Shown one piece after another: positions 22,057 to 33,959 of a stretch of DNA of 40,507 nucleotides. Below the pieces are notes generated by a model. That model saw only the letters and a list, made by a program, of their open reading frames with translations, did not search any database and was not told where the DNA came from. The position numbers and the translations under genes were made by a program. This DNA comes from a virus: the UHGV virus genome UHGV-0094371. One strand, 5' to 3'. Each line of letters starts with the position of its first letter. Within the stretch, counting starts at the first letter, position 1.

Positions 22057-23109
22057 TTATTCCCATGCCAGCTGCCTTACCTCACTTACCGTCTGGTTGA
22101 AACGTTCCTCTTCCAGTTCTACGCCGATAGCCTGGCGGCCCAGTTCAATGGCTGCTTTAACAGTTGATCCCGAGCCCATAAAGAAATCAGCTACCACATC
22201 GCCGGGCCTGCTGCTGGCGTTGATGATTTGCCGCAACATATCAGCGGGCTTTTCGCACGGGTGTTTGCCTGGATAGAACTGGACGGGTTTATGTGTCCAG
22301 ACGTCTGTATAGGGCACGGCTACTGTCACAGAGAAATGCCGCCGAAGAGATTTGTACTCTTCCAGCAGATCAAGGTATTTCCGGTTCAACGAATGCCATG
22401 TGGCCACCAGCTGGTGATGCGGTGCTTTGAGTTCAGAGGCGCGGTGCTTCTCAATGGCGATCTGAGTGAACAATTCCTGCAGCTTTTCGTAATCCTGCTC
22501 GTTTGGTAGTTGCCACTGACTGGTACCGAACCAGTGAGACGCCATATTTTTCTTTCCGGTAGCGTCAGCTATTTGCCTGGACGTGACCCCCAGTTCGGCT
22601 CGTGCATCACGAAAGTAGGTGATTAACGGAGCCATGACGTGCTGTTTGACCTCGTTGCTTTTCTCAGCAAATCCGTCGCTTTTCGGCTTATATGGCCCCT
22701 GATAATGCTCAGCGAAAAGGATGCGTTCCGTCGCGGGGAAGTAAGAGCGCAGGCTTTCTTTATTACAACCGTTCCAACGCCCTGATGGCTTCGCCCAGAT
22801 AATGTGGTTCATGACGTTGAAGCGTTCACGCATCATGATCTCAATATCGGATGCAAGTCGGTGACCTGAAAACAAATACAGGCTGCCGGCAGGCTTAAGC
22901 ACTCGCCAGAACTGGGCAAGACACATATCAAGCCAGCGAAGATAGTCGGCGTCACCGTTCCACTGATTATCCCAGCCGTTCGGCTTCACCTTAAAATAAG
23001 GCGGATCCGTAACAATAAGGTCGATGGTGTTATCTGGGAGGGTTGCGAGGTATTGCAGGCAGTCAGCGTTGATAAGCTCAACACTGTTTATATTTACAGT
23101 ATTTTTCAT
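22057..23109 (-). CDS. orphan DNA methyltransferase (beta-class N6-adenine/N4-cytosine, PF01555-like)
   Basis: 350 aa; motif IV DPPY near the N-terminus (IVTDPPYF) and motif I FxGxG near the C-terminus (DFFMGSGST); no adjacent restriction gene. Confidence 0.85.
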   Translation of the reverse strand: MKNTVNINSVELINADCLQYLATLPDNTIDLIVTDPPYFKVKPNGWDNQWNGDADYLRWLDMCLAQFWRVLKPAGSLYLFSGHRLASDIEIMMRERFNVMNHIIWAKPSGRWNGCNKESLRSYFPATERILFAEHYQGPYKPKSDGFAEKSNEVKQHVMAPLITYFRDARAELGVTSRQIADATGKKNMASHWFGTSQWQLPNEQDYEKLQELFTQIAIEKHRASELKAPHHQLVATWHSLNRKYLDLLEEYKSLRRHFSVTVAVPYTDVWTHKPVQFYPGKHPCEKPADMLRQIINASSRPGDVVADFFMGSGSTVKAAIELGRQAIGVELEEERFNQTVSEVRQLAWE

Positions 23110-25478: not shown

Positions 25479-26288
25479 TCAATGAACGGTATCGAGCAGC
25501 TTTAACAGCTCAGGGAATCGGGATTCGAAGAAATGCGGCTGCGTCTCGCGCGGATTTGCGGGACTGGTGATGTTCTTGCCGAACATGCAACCTTTCGCTG
25601 TCAGCGACCAGAATTTTTTGATGTTGTTAATCGCGGTACGGCTGTATCGTTCGCGCTGCTCGACGATCCCCAGTTTCACCATCTGGTGATATGCCTGATT
25701 AGCCGTCAGGCGTATACCATACTGTTTCAGCAGTGCACTCAGTGACAGTGTCGGGCGACTTGAGCCATCGTGTGCATCAGCAGGAGCATCAATGGCATAG
25801 CGCGGTGCCAGATTCGGTAAGCCAACAGCCTCCTGGAGTTTCTGACAGGCACCAAGCACTGAAGAGTTAGACAGGTTTAACTCCCGGCGCATAAAGTCCA
25901 GCAGGATCACGCCAGCCTGCATCTTGTCAGCAGCCTGCCCGGATAATTTTTCCGGTGCGCTGGTTACCATATCGAAAGTACGGATCACCTTCAGATGGAA
26001 TGACGGGCTGATCCACATTGCATAGGCATACACCAGTTCCTTGCAGACATACGTTCCCCGTTCATTTCCCCCATGAATCACACTCACCGGGTCAACACCC
26101 AAATTCTGGGTATTGGTCAATTCATGAACAAGCTCAACAGTTTGTTGGCTGGAAAGAAACTTTCCTGGCTCCTTGGTTCTGGCATTTGCACCAGATGCTA
26201 CTGCTGCGCGATGCAGATCGTTCAGGCTGTAACGCCCATAAGCATCACGACGAACTTCAATACCATCAATAACCATCAGATTATTCAT
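25479..26288 (-). CDS. KilA-N domain protein (antirepressor-like)
   Basis: 269 aa; N-terminal GRYSLNDLHRAA...GTYVCKELVYAYAMWISPSFHLKVIR. Confidence 0.7.
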   Translation of the reverse strand: MNNLMVIDGIEVRRDAYGRYSLNDLHRAAVASGANARTKEPGKFLSSQQTVELVHELTNTQNLGVDPVSVIHGGNERGTYVCKELVYAYAMWISPSFHLKVIRTFDMVTSAPEKLSGQAADKMQAGVILLDFMRRELNLSNSSVLGACQKLQEAVGLPNLAPRYAIDAPADAHDGSSRPTLSLSALLKQYGIRLTANQAYHQMVKLGIVEQRERYSRTAINNIKKFWSLTAKGCMFGKNITSPANPRETQPHFFESRFPELLKLLDTVH

Positions 26289-26307: not shown

Positions 26308-26697
26308 TCAGGCGGCTGCACCCGCCGTTTTCTCGTACTTACTGATAGTGATCTCGACCTTCCCTTCCGGGATAACCGGCCCCCACTCCACCAGCATTCT
26401 TTTCACCTGGCTGTCGTCCACCCACACACCCGCGTGGGTCAGGGCGTCAAACAGCGCCTTGTTATAGTTGTCCAGATCGCGAAGCCGGTTATCCGGAGGA
26501 AACAACACGATCTCCACTGAAGCTGGTGCCGACGTTGGTTTCGGCAGACGACGTAACTGCTCAATGATGGCTGCACACGCTGCGCTCTGGAATTTTCGCC
26601 CCGCCGCGCTTATCAGGCTCTTACCTGCAAGCGCCCCTTTGTTGGGGTGTCGCCAGTACGTGTTCACGCTGGGCGGAAAAGGCAGTATTAGCTTCAT
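26308..26697 (-). CDS. rusA: Holliday junction resolvase RusA
   Basis: 129 aa; LPFPPSVNTYW...DLDNYNKALFDALTHAGVWVDDSQV. Confidence 0.85.
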   Translation of the reverse strand: MKLILPFPPSVNTYWRHPNKGALAGKSLISAAGRKFQSAACAAIIEQLRRLPKPTSAPASVEIVLFPPDNRLRDLDNYNKALFDALTHAGVWVDDSQVKRMLVEWGPVIPEGKVEITISKYEKTAGAAA

Positions 26698-27020
26698 ACT
26701 TTCAGGCCCCTCTCATGTAACCAGTGGGCTGCACGCAGCCTGGCGTTTGCCTCACCGGCAAGCAGTGCGCGGATAATCCCGACCGCCTCGCTGTCGTCGT
26801 CCTTCACCGCGGTATGAAGCGTGATGCCCCGGGCCACGCCACGCTTTATCGTGATGACGCCTTTTTTCTCCAGTGCGCGAAGATGCTCCACCGCTGCATT
26901 CACTGAACGGTATCCCAGCATGGTTGCCACCTCCTGATTGGTTGGCGGGAAGCCACGTTCTTTCTGATAAGAAATCAGCATATCCAGCACCTGCTGCTGG
27001 CATTGAGTTAACGTAGTCAT
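26694..27020 (-). CDS. LexA-type winged-helix DNA-binding protein lacking the S24 peptidase domain
   Basis: 108 aa from the ATG at 27020; MTTLTQCQQQVLDMLISYQKERGFPPTNQEVATMLGYRSVNAAVEHLRALEKKGVI resembles the LexA N-terminal domain as recalled; ATGA overlaps on both sides. Confidence 0.6.
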   Translation of the reverse strand: MTTLTQCQQQVLDMLISYQKERGFPPTNQEVATMLGYRSVNAAVEHLRALEKKGVITIKRGVARGITLHTAVKDDDSEAVGIIRALLAGEANARLRAAHWLHERGLKV

Positions 27021-28800: not shown

Positions 28801-29348
28801 GCGTTAGTTTCTCCACAGTCACGACACGCCACGGCGCCCGGAGCTGCACACTCGCGGGCGTCACTACTTTCTGAAACGCAAAAGATTTTGTAGACCAGTG
28901 CTGCATGCTCCTGCAGCTTCGAAATTGAGAGGTACAGCTCATCGTTAATTGCTGTCTTCTCATGCGGTTCCACTACACCGTCTTCAATTGCTGAACGAAT
29001 CTGTTTTGAATAACTGCCGATCTGTTCAATGACCTCCAGCAGGCGTTGGTTGATATCGGCGTTGTCCACATCCTCGATGTCAGGAAGAGACACAAATACG
29101 CCATTTGCAGACTGCGCCACAGCATCAGCAATGAAGTGAGTGCCACCAGCACGCTGTAAAACCATTGCCCATCCCAGCGGGAAAATCTGATCGCCATCTG
29201 CACGAAGGCGGTTGAATAAAGCGTTTTCTGTTACATCGAGCCAATCAGCCGCTTCAGCGTAACCACCCGGCAACGCCGCGATAGTTTTTCTGACAGCTTT
29301 CACGTACCACTCAGGCTGTTTTTCTATTTTCCAGTGATGCTTACCCAC
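28797..29348 (-). CDS. putative CII-like regulator (YdaT / CP76-like)
   Basis: 183 aa directly downstream of cro; family assignment from memory only. Confidence 0.4.
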
Positions 29349-29601
29349 GGTTCACCTCCTGTTCCTGTGGTTTAAACCCATTCTGGTTTTGGCTAGATTG
29401 AAAACGTGCCGGATAAAGAATCTGCATTTCGCTGATTTCACCCTTAAAAAAATTGGCTAAACGTTCTGCAAGCTCGATAGATGGAATCTGCTCCAGCCTC
29501 TCAATACGACTCAACGTCGCTGGATTGACTTGAACACCCGCAGCAACATGCTGCAAAGTGAAACCATGCGCCTTACGCACATTTCGTAATGGTGATTGCA
29601 T
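29341..29601 (-). CDS. cro: Cro-like HTH (XRE family) repressor
   Basis: 86 aa; HTH (FTLQHVAAGVQVNPATLSRIE); divergent from cI across a 97-bp operator region. Confidence 0.75.
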   Translation of the reverse strand: MQSPLRNVRKAHGFTLQHVAAGVQVNPATLSRIERLEQIPSIELAERLANFFKGEISEMQILYPARFQSSQNQNGFKPQEQEVNRG

Positions 29602-29698
29602 ATATCCTCCAAATATTGCGCGTTATGCATGTTATTTCACGCAAGTATTTTGCGCAAGTTGATTTGCTTATCACGCAATAAAGAAATGTAATAAACGC
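29602..29698. promoter_or_regulatory. cI-cro divergent promoter/operator region with two inverted-repeat sites (TTGCGYG-N15-CRCGCAA) and an 8-bp perfect palindrome TTGCGCAA
   Basis: half-sites at 29616-22 / 29638-44 and 29650-57 / 29672-78. Confidence 0.55.
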
Positions 29699-30391
29699 AT
29701 GAACATAGGAAAACGAGTCAGACAACTTCGCCAAGCGAAGAACATGAAAATCGCCGATCTCGCTGAAGCAATAGGAGTAGATGCGGCGAACATCTCGCGC
29801 TTAGAAACGGGTAAGCAGAAACAATTTACCGAACAAACACTGAGTAATATTGCCAAGAGCTTAGGTGTTGATATTGCTGATCTCTTTACCTCTGCCCTCA
29901 AAAGTAATACTGTATATAAAAACAGTAATGATGAGGATGTTGCGCAGGTGAAGGATGTGTTCCGTATTGAAATGTTGGATATCAGTGCCAGTGCGGGAAA
30001 TGGCCTTATCCAGGGCGGTGATGTCATTGATGTGATTCATGCCATCGAATACAGAACTGATAATGCTGTATCAATGTTCGGCGGACGACCAGCCAATCAC
30101 ATCAAAGTTATCAACGTTCGTGGGGACAGTATGTGTCCAACCATTGAGCCAGGAGATCTCATCTTCGTTGATGTCAGCATCAATCAGTTTGATGGTGATG
30201 GTATATATGTCTTTGGTTTTGATGACAAAATATACGTTAAAAGACTTCAAATGATTCCTGACAAACTGCTGGTGATTTCTGATAACCAGATTTACCGTGA
30301 ATGGGGAATTACTAGCGAAAACGAACACCGATTCATGGTCTTTGGAAAGGTCTTAATCAGTCAGTCGCAAACCCTTAAGAGACATAATTAA
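29699..30391 (+). CDS. cI: CI-type prophage repressor (N-terminal HTH plus C-terminal S24 LexA-like peptidase)
   Basis: 230 aa; HTH IADLAEAIGVDAANISRLE; S24 motifs RGDSMCPTIEPGDL and YVKRL. Confidence 0.9.
   Translation: MNIGKRVRQLRQAKNMKIADLAEAIGVDAANISRLETGKQKQFTEQTLSNIAKSLGVDIADLFTSALKSNTVYKNSNDEDVAQVKDVFRIEMLDISASAGNGLIQGGDVIDVIHAIEYRTDNAVSMFGGRPANHIKVINVRGDSMCPTIEPGDLIFVDVSINQFDGDGIYVFGFDDKIYVKRLQMIPDKLLVISDNQIYREWGITSENEHRFMVFGKVLISQSQTLKRHN
29908..29927. promoter_or_regulatory. near-consensus LexA (SOS) box TACTGTATATAAAAACAGTA inside the cI coding sequence
   Basis: CTGT-N8-ACAG with flanking TA/TA; 2 mismatches to TACTGTATATATATACAGTA, both in the AT spacer. Confidence 0.5.
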
Positions 30392-30410
30392 CTTCAATAT
30401 CCCATCCATC

Positions 30411-30433
30411 GGCCACCGAAAGGTGGCTTTTTA
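30411..30433 (+). terminator. intrinsic terminator after cI (GCCACC-GAAA-GGTGGC then T5)
   Basis: direct reading, 20 nt after the cI stop. Confidence 0.65.
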
Positions 30434-30683
30434 TCACCCATAATTTTGCACATCTCGCAAAATATTACTTGCGTATATCGCATTTTAATTTTATCTTTTG
30501 TTCCAGACCAACTACAGGATTACAACAAAATCTAGTTGCAACACGGTGCATGGTGCATGTGTCGTAAGCGGTCAGTAATTGTCAAAAACGAACAGTCAGG
30601 ACGACCACGAAGTAGCCGCCGGTGGCGTATGAATGACCGGATGATTCGCTGACAGAAAACTTAGGTTGGGGGTAGAGGTTTAC

Positions 30684-31049
30684 ATGAATCATTTATTCAC
30701 ATGCTCATTTTGCGGAGCAACCGAACTGGGAGCGATAAAGATCGTCGCAAAAGGTGGTAAGGACGAACCTGCCATCTGTTCGGAATGCGTAGTCACATGT
30801 GTAGAAAAAATGATCCTGACTAAAAAATCAGAGGCTGAAAAACCAACCTCTGATAACGAAATAATATCAGTCGATAAAAAACTATTTAAAGAGCTTCTTC
30901 AGCTTGTCCTCAACCATCCTGATTTCGGAAGTAAGCTGGCTGCTGTTGACATTGATAGTAGCTCCACATCGACAAGTGAAACTTTTGTTCGACTTGAGCC
31001 AAGCGATTTTCTTCTTCGTCTTAGTGCCGCACTTAGGGCATGCGGGTAA
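30684..31049 (+). CDS. stand-alone ClpX-type C4 zinc-finger (ZBD-like) protein
   Basis: 121 aa from the ATG at 30684 (GAGG RBS 6 nt upstream); CSFCG-x20-CSEC resembles the ClpX N-terminal zinc-binding domain as recalled. Confidence 0.55.
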   Translation: MNHLFTCSFCGATELGAIKIVAKGGKDEPAICSECVVTCVEKMILTKKSEAEKPTSDNEIISVDKKLFKELLQLVLNHPDFGSKLAAVDIDSSSTSTSETFVRLEPSDFLLRLSAALRACG

Positions 31050-31761: not shown

Positions 31762-32622
31762 ATGACTACCCAAATCATCATCTCCGATATCTCTATCCAT
31801 CAGGATTCAAAAGGTCGTTATTCAATCAACGATCTGCATAAAGCTGCTGGCGCTGAACATCGCCACCTGCCTAACTACTGGCTTGAACTACAGCAGACCA
31901 AAGAGTTAATCGAAGAGATTCTAAATACCGGAATCCCGGTAATTAACCCTCCGGTAGCCAGCAGAAAGGGCCGTTACGGTGGCACCTACGTATGCAAAGA
32001 GTTGGTTTACTCCTACGCCATGTGGATCAGCGCCGCTTTTGCACTCAAGGTGATCCGGGCATATGACGCGCTGGTATCTGGCAATGTGGAAGTGAAGCCA
32101 AAGGTTCGCCAGTGTACGGCAACCCAACTCACCCCGCTGCGCCAAACAGCAGAACGGTTAATCACAACTGGCCTCGGCAAAATCTATCCCGACATCTGGA
32201 AGCTGGTTCATCAGCGCTTCGATGTTGAGCATATCCACCAGTTGCAGCCTGAGCAGGTCGGTGAAGCCATCGAGTACCTGAACGTGCTGGAAGGTGAGTA
32301 CCTGGGGCGCGAGACACTTCCGGCAACCCCATCAGTGCATTTCACCAACGAGGAGCTTTGCGCTCTCTGCTGGGTATGGAATGCCGCCGAATACATGCGG
32401 GAGAAGATAGAGCTGGCCTATCCCGCAATGAAAACTCTCAAGTCTGAATACGCACCGAGCTTCTACTCAATGGCATTTGAGTATCAGCGAACACTGGAAG
32501 CCGGTAGAAAGGTTCTCGAACGGGAAACAAAACACATCGTTCCTCATCCTCACAGCGTGTCAGATGAAAACTGGCGGCGAGTCCTGCCTCGTCTGCGCCA
32601 AAATAGCTTACCTCGCGGATAA
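31762..32622 (+). CDS. KilA-N domain protein (paralogue of 25479-26288)
   Basis: 286 aa; GRYSINDLHKAA...GTYVCKELVYSYAMWISAAFALKVIR. Confidence 0.7.
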   Translation: MTTQIIISDISIHQDSKGRYSINDLHKAAGAEHRHLPNYWLELQQTKELIEEILNTGIPVINPPVASRKGRYGGTYVCKELVYSYAMWISAAFALKVIRAYDALVSGNVEVKPKVRQCTATQLTPLRQTAERLITTGLGKIYPDIWKLVHQRFDVEHIHQLQPEQVGEAIEYLNVLEGEYLGRETLPATPSVHFTNEELCALCWVWNAAEYMREKIELAYPAMKTLKSEYAPSFYSMAFEYQRTLEAGRKVLERETKHIVPHPHSVSDENWRRVLPRLRQNSLPRG

Positions 32623-32636
32623 TAAGGGACAAAACG

Positions 32637-33959
32637 ATGAGCGAGATTGCACCAACGAGCCTGTTACACCCTCTGAAAGCTACCGTTCTGGATTTTCAGG
32701 AGGATGAGCACGACTATCAGTTCAAGGTTGAATACCCGGAGCCGACCTGCTGCCATGCCTGCGGTGCAGTGTCTGACATCATCCGCTTTAACAAAAAGCT
32801 GGTGAAGTACCGGGATGTTCCCATGCACGGGAAGCGCGTCACGCTCTGGGTCGTAACACGCCGTTATCAGTGCAAATCATGCAAAGGCACATTCACCCCG
32901 GCCATCCCCGAGATGGCCGAAGCCCACCGCATGACAAAGCGCTGCTATCAGTACATCATTAAACGTGCGCTGACCGGCACTAACGCCAGCGTCGCGCAAG
33001 ATGTTGGCTTTGATGAGTCCGTCACCCGTGGGGTCATCAAGTCCTACTGCGAGCAAAAGGCGAAGACCTATAAGCCTGTGCTGCCGCGAGTGCTGGGCAT
33101 TGATGAGCTGTACCTGAACAAAACCTTCCGCTGTGTCCTGACCAACATCGAGCAGGGAACCATTATTGACATACTGGAATCCCGGCAAAGTAACGTCATC
33201 TACAACCGTCTGGCGCATATGGAAGGCCGTGAGAACGTGCAGATCGTCTGTCAGGATATGTGGAAGCCATACCGTGACGTTGCCAGCCAGCTATTCCCTA
33301 AAGCCAGCATCGTCGTTGACCGCTTCCATATCCAGCGCATGGCTAACGAGGCGATGGAAACGCTGCGTAAGTCGCTCAAAAAGGATCTGACAGTACACCA
33401 CCGACGGCAGCTTAAAGGCGACCGTAAGATGATGTTGATGCGTAAGCGTGACCTTAACCCTATGCAGCAGATGATTATCGAAACGTGGCTGGATCACTAT
33501 CCTGAGTTGGGTCTGGCCTATCAGCTCAAGGAAGAGTTCTTTGATATCTGGCTGGCACAGACTGAACCTGAGGCCAGAATGCGCTATCAGAACTGGCTGG
33601 CAAAGATACCCGATCATCATAAAAAGCACTGGAAGCCGCTGATAACATCCATGACGAACTGGGAGAAAGAGATATTCGCCTACTTCGGCCCGGCCCAGCG
33701 GAAGACCAACGCCTTTACGGAATCCATCAACCGCAAGATGCGCGATCTGAACCGTGATTCGCGCGGAATGTCCTTTGAGATGTTCAGGGCTAAAACACTG
33801 TTCACTCTCAAGCATAAGTTCAGCAAGCCTAAACCAGTGAAAGAATCACCGTTCACGGTTGGCTATGTCACCGCTGGTTCGTGGGATCTGGATGATGAAA
33901 TCCGGGACGATTACGGCGTATCTATCGACGCTATTCTGGAATCCAAAATCGGCGAATAA
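32637..33959 (+). CDS. ISL3-family DDE transposase homologue (zinc ribbon plus DDE domain), with no terminal inverted repeats found
   Basis: 440 aa; N-terminal CCHACG...CKSCKG; LGIDE, VCQDMWKPY, DRFHI and TNAFTESINRKMRDLNR motifs resemble the ISL3 signature as recalled; starts 15 nt after the KilA-N stop. Confidence 0.6.
   Translation: MSEIAPTSLLHPLKATVLDFQEDEHDYQFKVEYPEPTCCHACGAVSDIIRFNKKLVKYRDVPMHGKRVTLWVVTRRYQCKSCKGTFTPAIPEMAEAHRMTKRCYQYIIKRALTGTNASVAQDVGFDESVTRGVIKSYCEQKAKTYKPVLPRVLGIDELYLNKTFRCVLTNIEQGTIIDILESRQSNVIYNRLAHMEGRENVQIVCQDMWKPYRDVASQLFPKASIVVDRFHIQRMANEAMETLRKSLKKDLTVHHRRQLKGDRKMMLMRKRDLNPMQQMIIETWLDHYPELGLAYQLKEEFFDIWLAQTEPEARMRYQNWLAKIPDHHKKHWKPLITSMTNWEKEIFAYFGPAQRKTNAFTESINRKMRDLNRDSRGMSFEMFRAKTLFTLKHKFSKPKPVKESPFTVGYVTAGSWDLDDEIRDDYGVSIDAILESKIGE

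Follow-up and report, generated by a model that had tools for sequence, protein, structure and literature searches.

The 40,507-nucleotide genome of the virus UHGV-0094371, which we analyzed over its whole length and refer to below as the window, poses the question of why a binding site for the SOS repressor LexA should be embedded in the coding sequence of a phage repressor. The site is the 20-mer TACTGTATATAAAAACAGTA at positions 29908-29927 of the plus strand. It lies within the open reading frame (ORF) 29699-30391 of the same strand, the product of which is, judging from its helix-turn-helix (HTH) domain and self-cleaving S24 peptidase domain, a lambda-type CI repressor. In phages, LexA boxes are known to switch separate antirepressor genes or to act as co-repressor sites at promoters. 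The arrangement in the window is different, in that a box of consensus strength is kept by selection within the reading frame of a RecA-cleavable CI repressor. The explanation that we favor, and to which we would give about an even chance of being correct, is that the box gates an internal promoter within cI, and that this promoter would express an isoform consisting of the C-terminal domain only, which would weaken repression during the SOS response.

The predicted CI protein comprises 230 amino acids, with an HTH_3 domain at residues 7-62, a hypervariable linker at about residues 64-86 and a Peptidase_S24 domain at residues 104-218. The box occupies the linker codons N70-T-V-Y-K-N-S-N77 and precedes the Ala99-Gly100 cleavage motif, which is invariant among the homologues of cI together with Ser144 and Lys181. 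Compared with the ideal palindrome TACTGTATATATATACAGTA, the 20-mer has only two mismatches, both in the spacer. It has the features that define gammaproteobacterial LexA operators, namely the CTGT-N8-ACAG core, an AT-rich spacer and TA/TA flanks. Furthermore, it is identical, letter for letter, to the umuD and sbmC operators listed in Table 4 of PMC3009722, and we re-read the umuD copy upstream of umuD in the MG1655 genome. We scored it with a symmetrized position weight matrix (PWM), built from the 14 Escherichia coli operators of that table other than those of umuD and sbmC. The score of 26.8-27.3 bits lies at the top of the range spanned by the 16 E. coli operators (14.4-27.9 bits) and is thus not that of background. 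A random 20-mer would reach it with a probability of P=1.2e-10, which corresponds to 4.8e-6 expected occurrences in the window. The next best site in the window, at 23082-23101, scores 22.5 bits, and the rest of the window does not exceed 14.5 bits. By sequence, then, the 20-mer is a genuine member of the LexA operator class, and the sequence-only reading of this DNA, which had described a near-consensus LexA box on the sense strand in the linker-coding part of cI and had called for scoring by PWM, was correct in this respect.

A motif of this kind might be a local accident, and its conservation was therefore examined in a set of homologous repressor genes from IMG/VR contigs, GTDB genomes and GenBank phages, comprising 140 unique coding sequences with 88 linker peptides. 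In 137 of the 140 the best match to the LexA matrix in the entire gene falls at the same codon position; the other three, from Dryocola (n=2) and Phaseolibacter (n=1), are the most divergent of the set. The best-scoring sites amount to 38 distinct 20-mers, 35 of which score at least 17.3 bits. Among the closest phages, SfII (cI 98.7% identical to that of the window), mEp460 and Stx2a_1447 keep the box while the codons on either side of it differ. At greater distances, the box is found at the homologous place in STM0898, the repressor of Fels-1 (51% identity; 22.5 bits), and in the repressor of Cronobacter phage ENT47670 (50% identity; 21.8 bits); no box is present in the repressors of Yersinia phage YenM_30.14 (48.5% identity) and BTP1 (43%). 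Other carriers include Stx2a phages and ST64B, and the box-bearing genes as a whole come from about 13 genera: Escherichia, Shigella, Salmonella, Citrobacter, Klebsiella, Kluyvera, Pseudescherichia, Trabulsiella, Buttiauxella, Pantoea, Mixta, Proteus and Cronobacter. Across the 3.5 Mb of sequence that surrounds the cI genes, 239 of the 292 sites that score at least 17 bits are the cI box itself.

The pattern of this conservation is informative as to its cause. Entropy and codon usage were analyzed in 46 representatives with nucleotide identities below 95% to one another. The mean column entropy is 0.35 within the box, as against 0.89 in the 30 nucleotides upstream and 1.35 in the 30 nucleotides downstream. 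Within the box, TACTGTAT and CAGT are near-invariant and the spacer is free. Two conserved half-sites around a free spacer are the pattern of LexA recognition and not that of a uniformly conserved block. Only four of the 111 conserved columns with degenerate codons use a single codon in all 46 lineages, namely G4 (GGA), F63 (TTT), T71 (ACT) and S76 (AGT), and V72 is encoded by GTA in 44 of 46; elsewhere, conserved Thr, Ser and Val columns draw on the full set of codons. Codon 70 specifies seven different amino acids, yet ends in T in 45 of the 46 lineages. Similarly, codon 75 specifies six amino acids and is always NAC or NCC, which gives ACAG or CCAG, so that amino acid variation across the box preserves CTGT...(A/C)CAG.

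These data bear directly on the possibility that the motif has no function as DNA and is a by-product of the conserved peptide N-T-V-Y-K-N-S, a linker used in recombination or a product of chance. T71, V72 and S76 are indeed invariant as residues, and the C-terminal domain of the repressor has been shuffled among different N-terminal domains. In many phages it is found fused to unrelated DNA-binding domains at the N-terminus, with matches that cover only residues 47-222 or 86-230, and such partial matches indicate domain shuffling at or near the linker. A peptide-level constraint does not account for the freezing of synonymous sites (ACT in 46/46, AGT in 46/46, GTA in 44/46), nor for the restriction of variable residues to those compatible with T at position 1 and (A/C)C ahead of AG. 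The profile of half-sites around a variable spacer and the minute chance expectation given above are likewise at odds with it. The entropy profile and the codon-level evidence rule out a motif of chance or purely protein-level origin, and we consider this family of explanations scarcely credible. Selection on the DNA itself, and not on the protein, is well supported by these comparisons as the force that holds the box.

If the box is maintained as DNA, the protein that it serves needs to be identified, and in this regard the window offers a candidate of its own. The ORF at 26694-27020 on the minus strand encodes a LexA-like protein of 108 amino acids that possesses a DNA-binding domain only (PF01726, LexA_DNA_bind; E=2.9e-19). 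It aligns to residues 2-70 of LexA, and its recognition helix reads RSVNAAVEHL, versus RSPNAAEEHL in LexA. Ser39, Asn41, Ala42 and Glu45 of the helix, which we take to be the base contacts in the LexA-DNA structure, are all retained. The remainder is a C-terminal tail of 40 residues, with neither an S24 domain nor the LexA dimerization domain. Hence the protein could plausibly bind SOS boxes and be an additional ligand of both strong boxes in the window, and it may act, during lytic growth, as an uncleavable binder of SOS boxes. The gene adjoins rusA in the window, and a dam-lexA-like-rusA cassette recurs in many annotated lambdoid phages, including SfV, SfIV, cdtI and Stx2c phages.

One might accordingly suppose that the box mainly serves this phage protein, acting as a LexA mimic of lytic growth that shuts off box-controlled functions. 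Its well-preserved recognition helix agrees with such a role, as does its presence close to home: a lexA-like gene lies within 10 kb of cI in 52 of 56 close relatives, and every one of the 13 GenBank phage records whose cI is 95-99% identical in protein sequence carries the gene. Further out the association dissolves. The gene accompanies only 29 of 103 loci in the 65-75% identity band, and none of the 28 GenBank records at 60-90%, among them those of ST64B and its relatives, many Klebsiella phages, phiNP, Eeyore and Flotzy; it is also lacking from Fels-1 and ENT47670. Apart from Eeyore and Flotzy, these phages keep the box or belong to box-keeping groups. Conversely, the gene occurs in phages with other repressors (SfV, SfIV, cdtI, Stx2c phages, PhiR29 and PhiR49_1), so that its distribution is independent of the box, with dissociation in both directions. 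The missing dimerization domain is a further point against a dedicated partnership, and we regard this explanation as very improbable. The sequence-only reading had listed the phage protein as a possible ligand; binding remains plausible on the strength of the recognition helix, while the distribution of its gene excludes it as the reason for the conservation. Since most box-bearing phages do not have a lexA-like gene, the only binder common to them is host LexA, and a working operator for host LexA is the well-supported interpretation of the 20-mer from these sequence comparisons.

What the operator might control is suggested by its immediate surroundings. The left half-site of the box, TACTGT at 29908-29913 on the plus strand, resembles a -10 hexamer, and a -35-like hexamer, TTTACC, lies 17 bp upstream of it at 29885-29890 (+), within codons F63-T64. 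A promoter composed of these putative elements would start transcription at about 29920-29922. The layout TTTACC-17-TACTGT closely parallels the umuDC promoter of MG1655, TTGATC-17-TACTGT. A -35-like hexamer of the form TTTACN, with at least 4 of 6 matches to TTGACA at exactly 17 bp on the sense strand, is present in 24 of the 31 box-bearing lineages, and the F63 codon within it is TTT in 46 of 46 representatives, as noted above. The two ends of the box also differ in their conservation: position 1 (T) has an entropy of 0.15, versus 0.95 for its mirror position 20, and TACTGT is found on the sense strand in 29 of the 31 lineages and on the antisense strand in 15. Symmetric recognition by LexA leaves this T1/A20 asymmetry unexplained, and T at position 1 is essential for a -10 hexamer.

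The region just downstream of the box contains a candidate for what such a promoter would express. Codon 87 stands at the start of the C-terminal domain, that is, at the domain boundary 29-32 nucleotides past the box. It is GTG in the window and could initiate an in-frame internal ORF of 144 amino acids (29957-30391, +) that ends at the cI stop codon and contains the C-terminal domain in full, with its cleavage site, Ser/Lys dyad and oligomerization surface. It is preceded by the Shine-Dalgarno (SD)-like purine stretch AGGTGAAGGA at 29946-29955 (+). An alternative in-frame GTG at codon 84 (29948-29950, +), which would give a product of 147 amino acids, lies 10 nucleotides downstream of a second SD-like motif, GAGGA, at 29933-29937 (+). 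Among the 46 representatives codon 87 is GTG in 32 and ATG in 2, and GTG makes up only about 12% of the codons in the other six conserved Val columns. Of the 34 lineages with a start codon at this position, 33 have an SD-like motif (GGAG, GAGG or AAGGA) 5-9 nucleotides ahead of it, and the peptide encoded by this stretch is not conserved. The corresponding regions read GAGGAGAAATGAT-GTG in Fels-1 and GGGGAGGAATGAT-GTG in ENT47670. An out-of-frame alternative was also considered and dropped: the ATG contained in GAT-GTG across codons 86-87 occurs in 29 of 46 lineages and depends on Asp at residue 86, whereas the in-frame start does not.

The box and the candidate start tend to occur together. 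A box followed 29-32 nucleotides downstream by an in-frame GTG or ATG with an SD-like motif is seen in 26 of the 31 box-bearing lineages, the signal being weaker in the clade of the window. In the 38 linker lineages as a whole, 26 have the box and the SD-start, five the box only, six neither and one the SD-start only (Fisher p=0.001). The single lineage with the SD-start only still has a degenerate box of 15 bits, and the box-less YenM_30.14, BTP1 and Dryocola sequences have neither feature. In this test the lineages are not phylogenetically independent, and only seven of them are box-less.

These elements may be combined into a mechanism along the following lines. In the undamaged lysogen, LexA bound to the box would keep a weak internal promoter of the sense strand shut. 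DNA damage would lead to self-cleavage of LexA, transcription would begin near 29920, and the short leader with its SD-like stretch would permit translation from GTG87, or from GTG84, to the cI stop. The resulting protein of 144-147 amino acids would consist of the C-terminal oligomerization and self-cleavage domain only, incapable of binding DNA, and would pair with the full-length repressor or cleave it in trans, such that repression is weakened when the SOS response is on. The C-terminal fragments of LexA and lambda CI form mixed oligomers and undergo intermolecular cleavage, and it is because of this behavior that the isoform is expected to weaken repression. The outcome would be an antirepressor nested within the repressor gene. 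Of the steps in this scheme, the direction of the effect, toward induction, is the least secure, as it is drawn by analogy. The sequence-only reading had proposed an SOS-regulated internal promoter that might serve either a truncated repressor or the downstream ZBD (zinc-finger) gene. The former option gains from the -35-like hexamer at 17 bp, the asymmetry of TACTGT and the codon-87 start with its SD-like motif; the latter loses by the presence of a terminator at 30411-30428. More tentatively, and with a little less than an even chance, the phage family might be said to possess an SOS-gated "gene within a gene", its own LexA-controlled antirepressor, as a second SOS input in addition to RecA-stimulated self-cleavage.

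Several observations weigh against the nested-isoform mechanism. The clade of the window has the weakest start signal of all, with an SD interaction energy (dG) of -3.9 and with AGGTGAAGGA directly abutting GTG87. In mEp460 and Stx2a_1447 codon 87 is GTA, which leaves only GTG84 with its SD spacing of 10 nucleotides. More broadly, the codon-87 start signal is missing from five of the 31 box-bearing lineages: four have no start codon, among them a large Klebsiella-phage group that keeps the SD-like motif, and ST64B has TTG and no SD-like motif. The SD-like purine runs could stem in part from the composition of a linker rich in Glu, Gly, Lys and Asp. The -35-like hexamer is encoded by a conserved Leu-Phe-Thr and also occurs in box-less relatives, and since it is dictated by these codons it does not constitute independent evidence. 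A strict promoter scan of 29300-30700 reported nothing, a result that carries little weight because the same scan missed PR and PRM, which must exist. Finally, lexA3, an allele for non-cleavable LexA, does not block the induction of Fels-1 by mitomycin C (PMC3121763), and Fels-1 carries the box. The function controlled by the box is therefore not required for induction, and the box would be a modulator, not a master switch.

Three other roles for a LexA-bound site at this position have to be set against the nested isoform. LexA might act on an antisense promoter that, after LexA cleavage, fires against cI into the cro side, a possibility raised by the sequence-only reading and compatible with the right half-site of the window, which also reads TACTGT on the minus strand. 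This idea found no backing in the comparisons: at 17 bp on the minus strand only one of the 31 lineages reaches even 3 of 6 matches to a -35 hexamer, at a position that falls in hypervariable sequence, and in 16 of the 31 the hexamer on that strand reads CACTGT or TACTGG. We consider it most improbable. It is also conceivable, if rather unlikely, that an internal promoter does exist and serves the SOS transcription of genes past cI, in the window the ClpX-type zinc-finger ORF at 30666-31049. In Fels-1 such driving is possible, as the 3' end of the repressor gene is overlapped by the following ORF, an arrangement that leaves no space for a terminator. In ST64B, expression of the genes at the post-cI position and of the non-coding RNA STnc1310 rises in response to peroxide and nitric oxide (PMC7067206); this response would fit ordinary derepression of the early-left promoter equally well. 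Readthrough is unlikely in the window in view of the strong intrinsic-terminator-like hairpin and T-run at 30411-30428 (+), just 3' of the cI stop, the counterpart of which in SfII is annotated as a terminator. Moreover, the genes past cI vary among box-bearing phages, and what is conserved is the spacing from the box to the domain boundary and the SD-start. STnc1310, with its SOS-like induction, was considered as a possible transcript of the box itself and set aside, as it maps downstream of cI (2099207-2099280, versus 2098186-2098881 for cI, STMMW_20241 / SL1344_1967) and not at the box, which in D23580 coordinates lies at about 2098395-2098414.

The remaining possibility dispenses with both promoter and isoform. 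Bound some 210 nucleotides into the gene, LexA would be a roadblock to polymerases arriving from the maintenance and establishment promoters, so that repressor synthesis would be low in healthy cells and would rise upon LexA cleavage, buffering the lysogen against brief SOS pulses. An operator as strong as that of umuDC inside a transcribed gene is in keeping with this model; conservation at the level of DNA is expected equally under it, and the lexA3 result in Fels-1 fits a modulator of this sort. It leaves unexplained, however, the T1/A20 asymmetry and the fixed distance of 52-55 nucleotides to the domain boundary, as well as the -35-like geometry and the co-occurrence of the box with an SD-like motif and an in-frame start. 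An increase in repressor during the SOS response would also oppose the design of a RecA-cleavable repressor, as known from lambda CI. We judge the roadblock unlikely.

A comparison with known systems helps to place the nested-isoform arrangement. The closest parallel in DNA is with umuDC and sbmC, whose operators are identical in all 20 bp; the umuDC promoter also shares the layout of a -35 hexamer with 4 of 6 matches, a 17-bp spacer and TACTGT at -10. The difference is that the umuDC operator is intergenic and upstream of its gene, whereas the cI box lies inside a reading frame and encodes N-T-V-Y-K-N-S, its promoter activity being putative. In logic, the candidate is nearer to LexA-controlled antirepressors, of which the tum gene of coliphage 186 is an example. 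The gfoA and gftA genes of Gifsy-1/2/3 are similar in that a host LexA box ties the prophage to the SOS response through a product proposed to inactivate the repressor (PMC3121763). Those of 186 and Gifsy are, in contrast, separate small genes far from the immunity region, directed at repressors that are not cleaved by RecA, and the induction of Fels-1 differs from theirs in being independent of LexA cleavage (PMC3121763). The cI candidate would instead be the repressor's own C-terminal domain, nested in frame, in a protein that keeps the Ala-Gly/Ser/Lys apparatus of self-cleavage. The box arrangement would thus work like the LexA-gated antirepressor modules of 186 and Gifsy, yet it is not a member of that family.

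Host LexA also acts at the immunity or early control DNA of Bacillus phage GIL01 (with gp7) and of Vibrio phage CTXphi (with RstR). In both it binds at intergenic promoters as a repressor or co-repressor of lytic genes; the site in the window, unlike these, is intragenic, and the phage has a complete CI/Cro switch. Nested, in-frame repressor isoforms shortened at the N-terminus are known from the c gene of Streptomyces phage phiC31. Together with the LexA and lambda CI fragments, it provides a precedent for a trans-acting C-terminal domain and for shortened isoforms, neither of them with a LexA-gated internal promoter. In the full-text literature, which we searched with terms that included the exact 20-mer, no SOS box inside a cI gene was found described; coverage was incomplete, and a prior description is possible. 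Two further leads were examined and rejected. A tblastn match to residues 86-230 in Citrobacter phage Omnitron appeared to be a free-standing gene for the C-terminal domain, and proved to be a full-length repressor with another N-terminal domain and no box. Data from E. coli K-12 were considered by way of e14, in which the cII neighbor is YmfL-like. The e14 repressor YmfK is unrelated and no site in e14 exceeds 10 bits, and LexA chromatin immunoprecipitation data from K-12 are therefore not applicable.

The repressor family in question is common and of medical relevance. Of 5426 complete E. coli genomes, 1040 (about 19%) contain a copy of cI that is at least 80% identical in nucleotides, and the family includes the Shigella serotype-converting phage SfII, Stx2a- and Stx2k-converting phages, Salmonella ST64B and Fels-1. 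LexA is cleaved more readily than repressors of the CI type. Should the box indeed gate a truncated isoform, it would provide a second and faster SOS input to prophage induction, with a bearing on the release of Shiga toxin and on phage-mediated gene transfer under antibiotic stress. The locus would also be a natural example of one stretch of nucleotides that serves as a transcription factor site, a putative promoter and a putative ribosome-binding site and at the same time encodes a protein linker.

The second strong LexA box of the window, CACTGTTTATATTTACAGTA at 23082-23101 on the minus strand (22.5 bits), falls in codons 3-9 of an N6_N4 DNA methyltransferase gene (22057-23109), which is situated between a Q-like antiterminator gene and the lysis genes. 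It is kept across divergent alleles of the gene, the products of which begin with MKNTVNINS, MKNTVKINS, MENTVNLNS, MNSTVNLSS and others, and it looks like another selected SOS box of intragenic or start-proximal type. The two intragenic boxes share the same frame relative to their genes, with N-T-V-x-x-N-S as the encoded peptide (aAT ACT GTa ... aAC AGT), and this may be the frame in which a LexA box is best accommodated in coding sequence.

Around cI itself, the genes divergent from it are Cro-like and CII-like. Repeats of the TTGCGCAA / CACGCAA type are found on both sides of cI, at 29602-29698 and 30440-30480, and presumably represent the OR and OL operators for this type of immunity. The cI start is directly preceded by TGTAATAAACGC in the context TGTAATAAACGC-ATG, which points to a maintenance transcript without a leader, like that of lambda. 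The first ORF past the cI terminator (30666-31049, +) matches the ClpX-type C4 zinc finger with 26.0 bits, against a Pfam cut-off of 27. Elsewhere in the window, two paralogous ORFs, at 25479-26288 (-) in the nin/late region and at 31762-32622 (+) in the early-left region, have an N-terminal segment GRYSLNDLH...TYVCKELVYAYAMWIS in common, and a weak LexA-like site of 14.4 bits lies at 31876-31895 inside the latter. The early-left arm also contains a transposase-like ORF of 440 amino acids (32637-33959, +), which suggests an insertion sequence inside the prophage.

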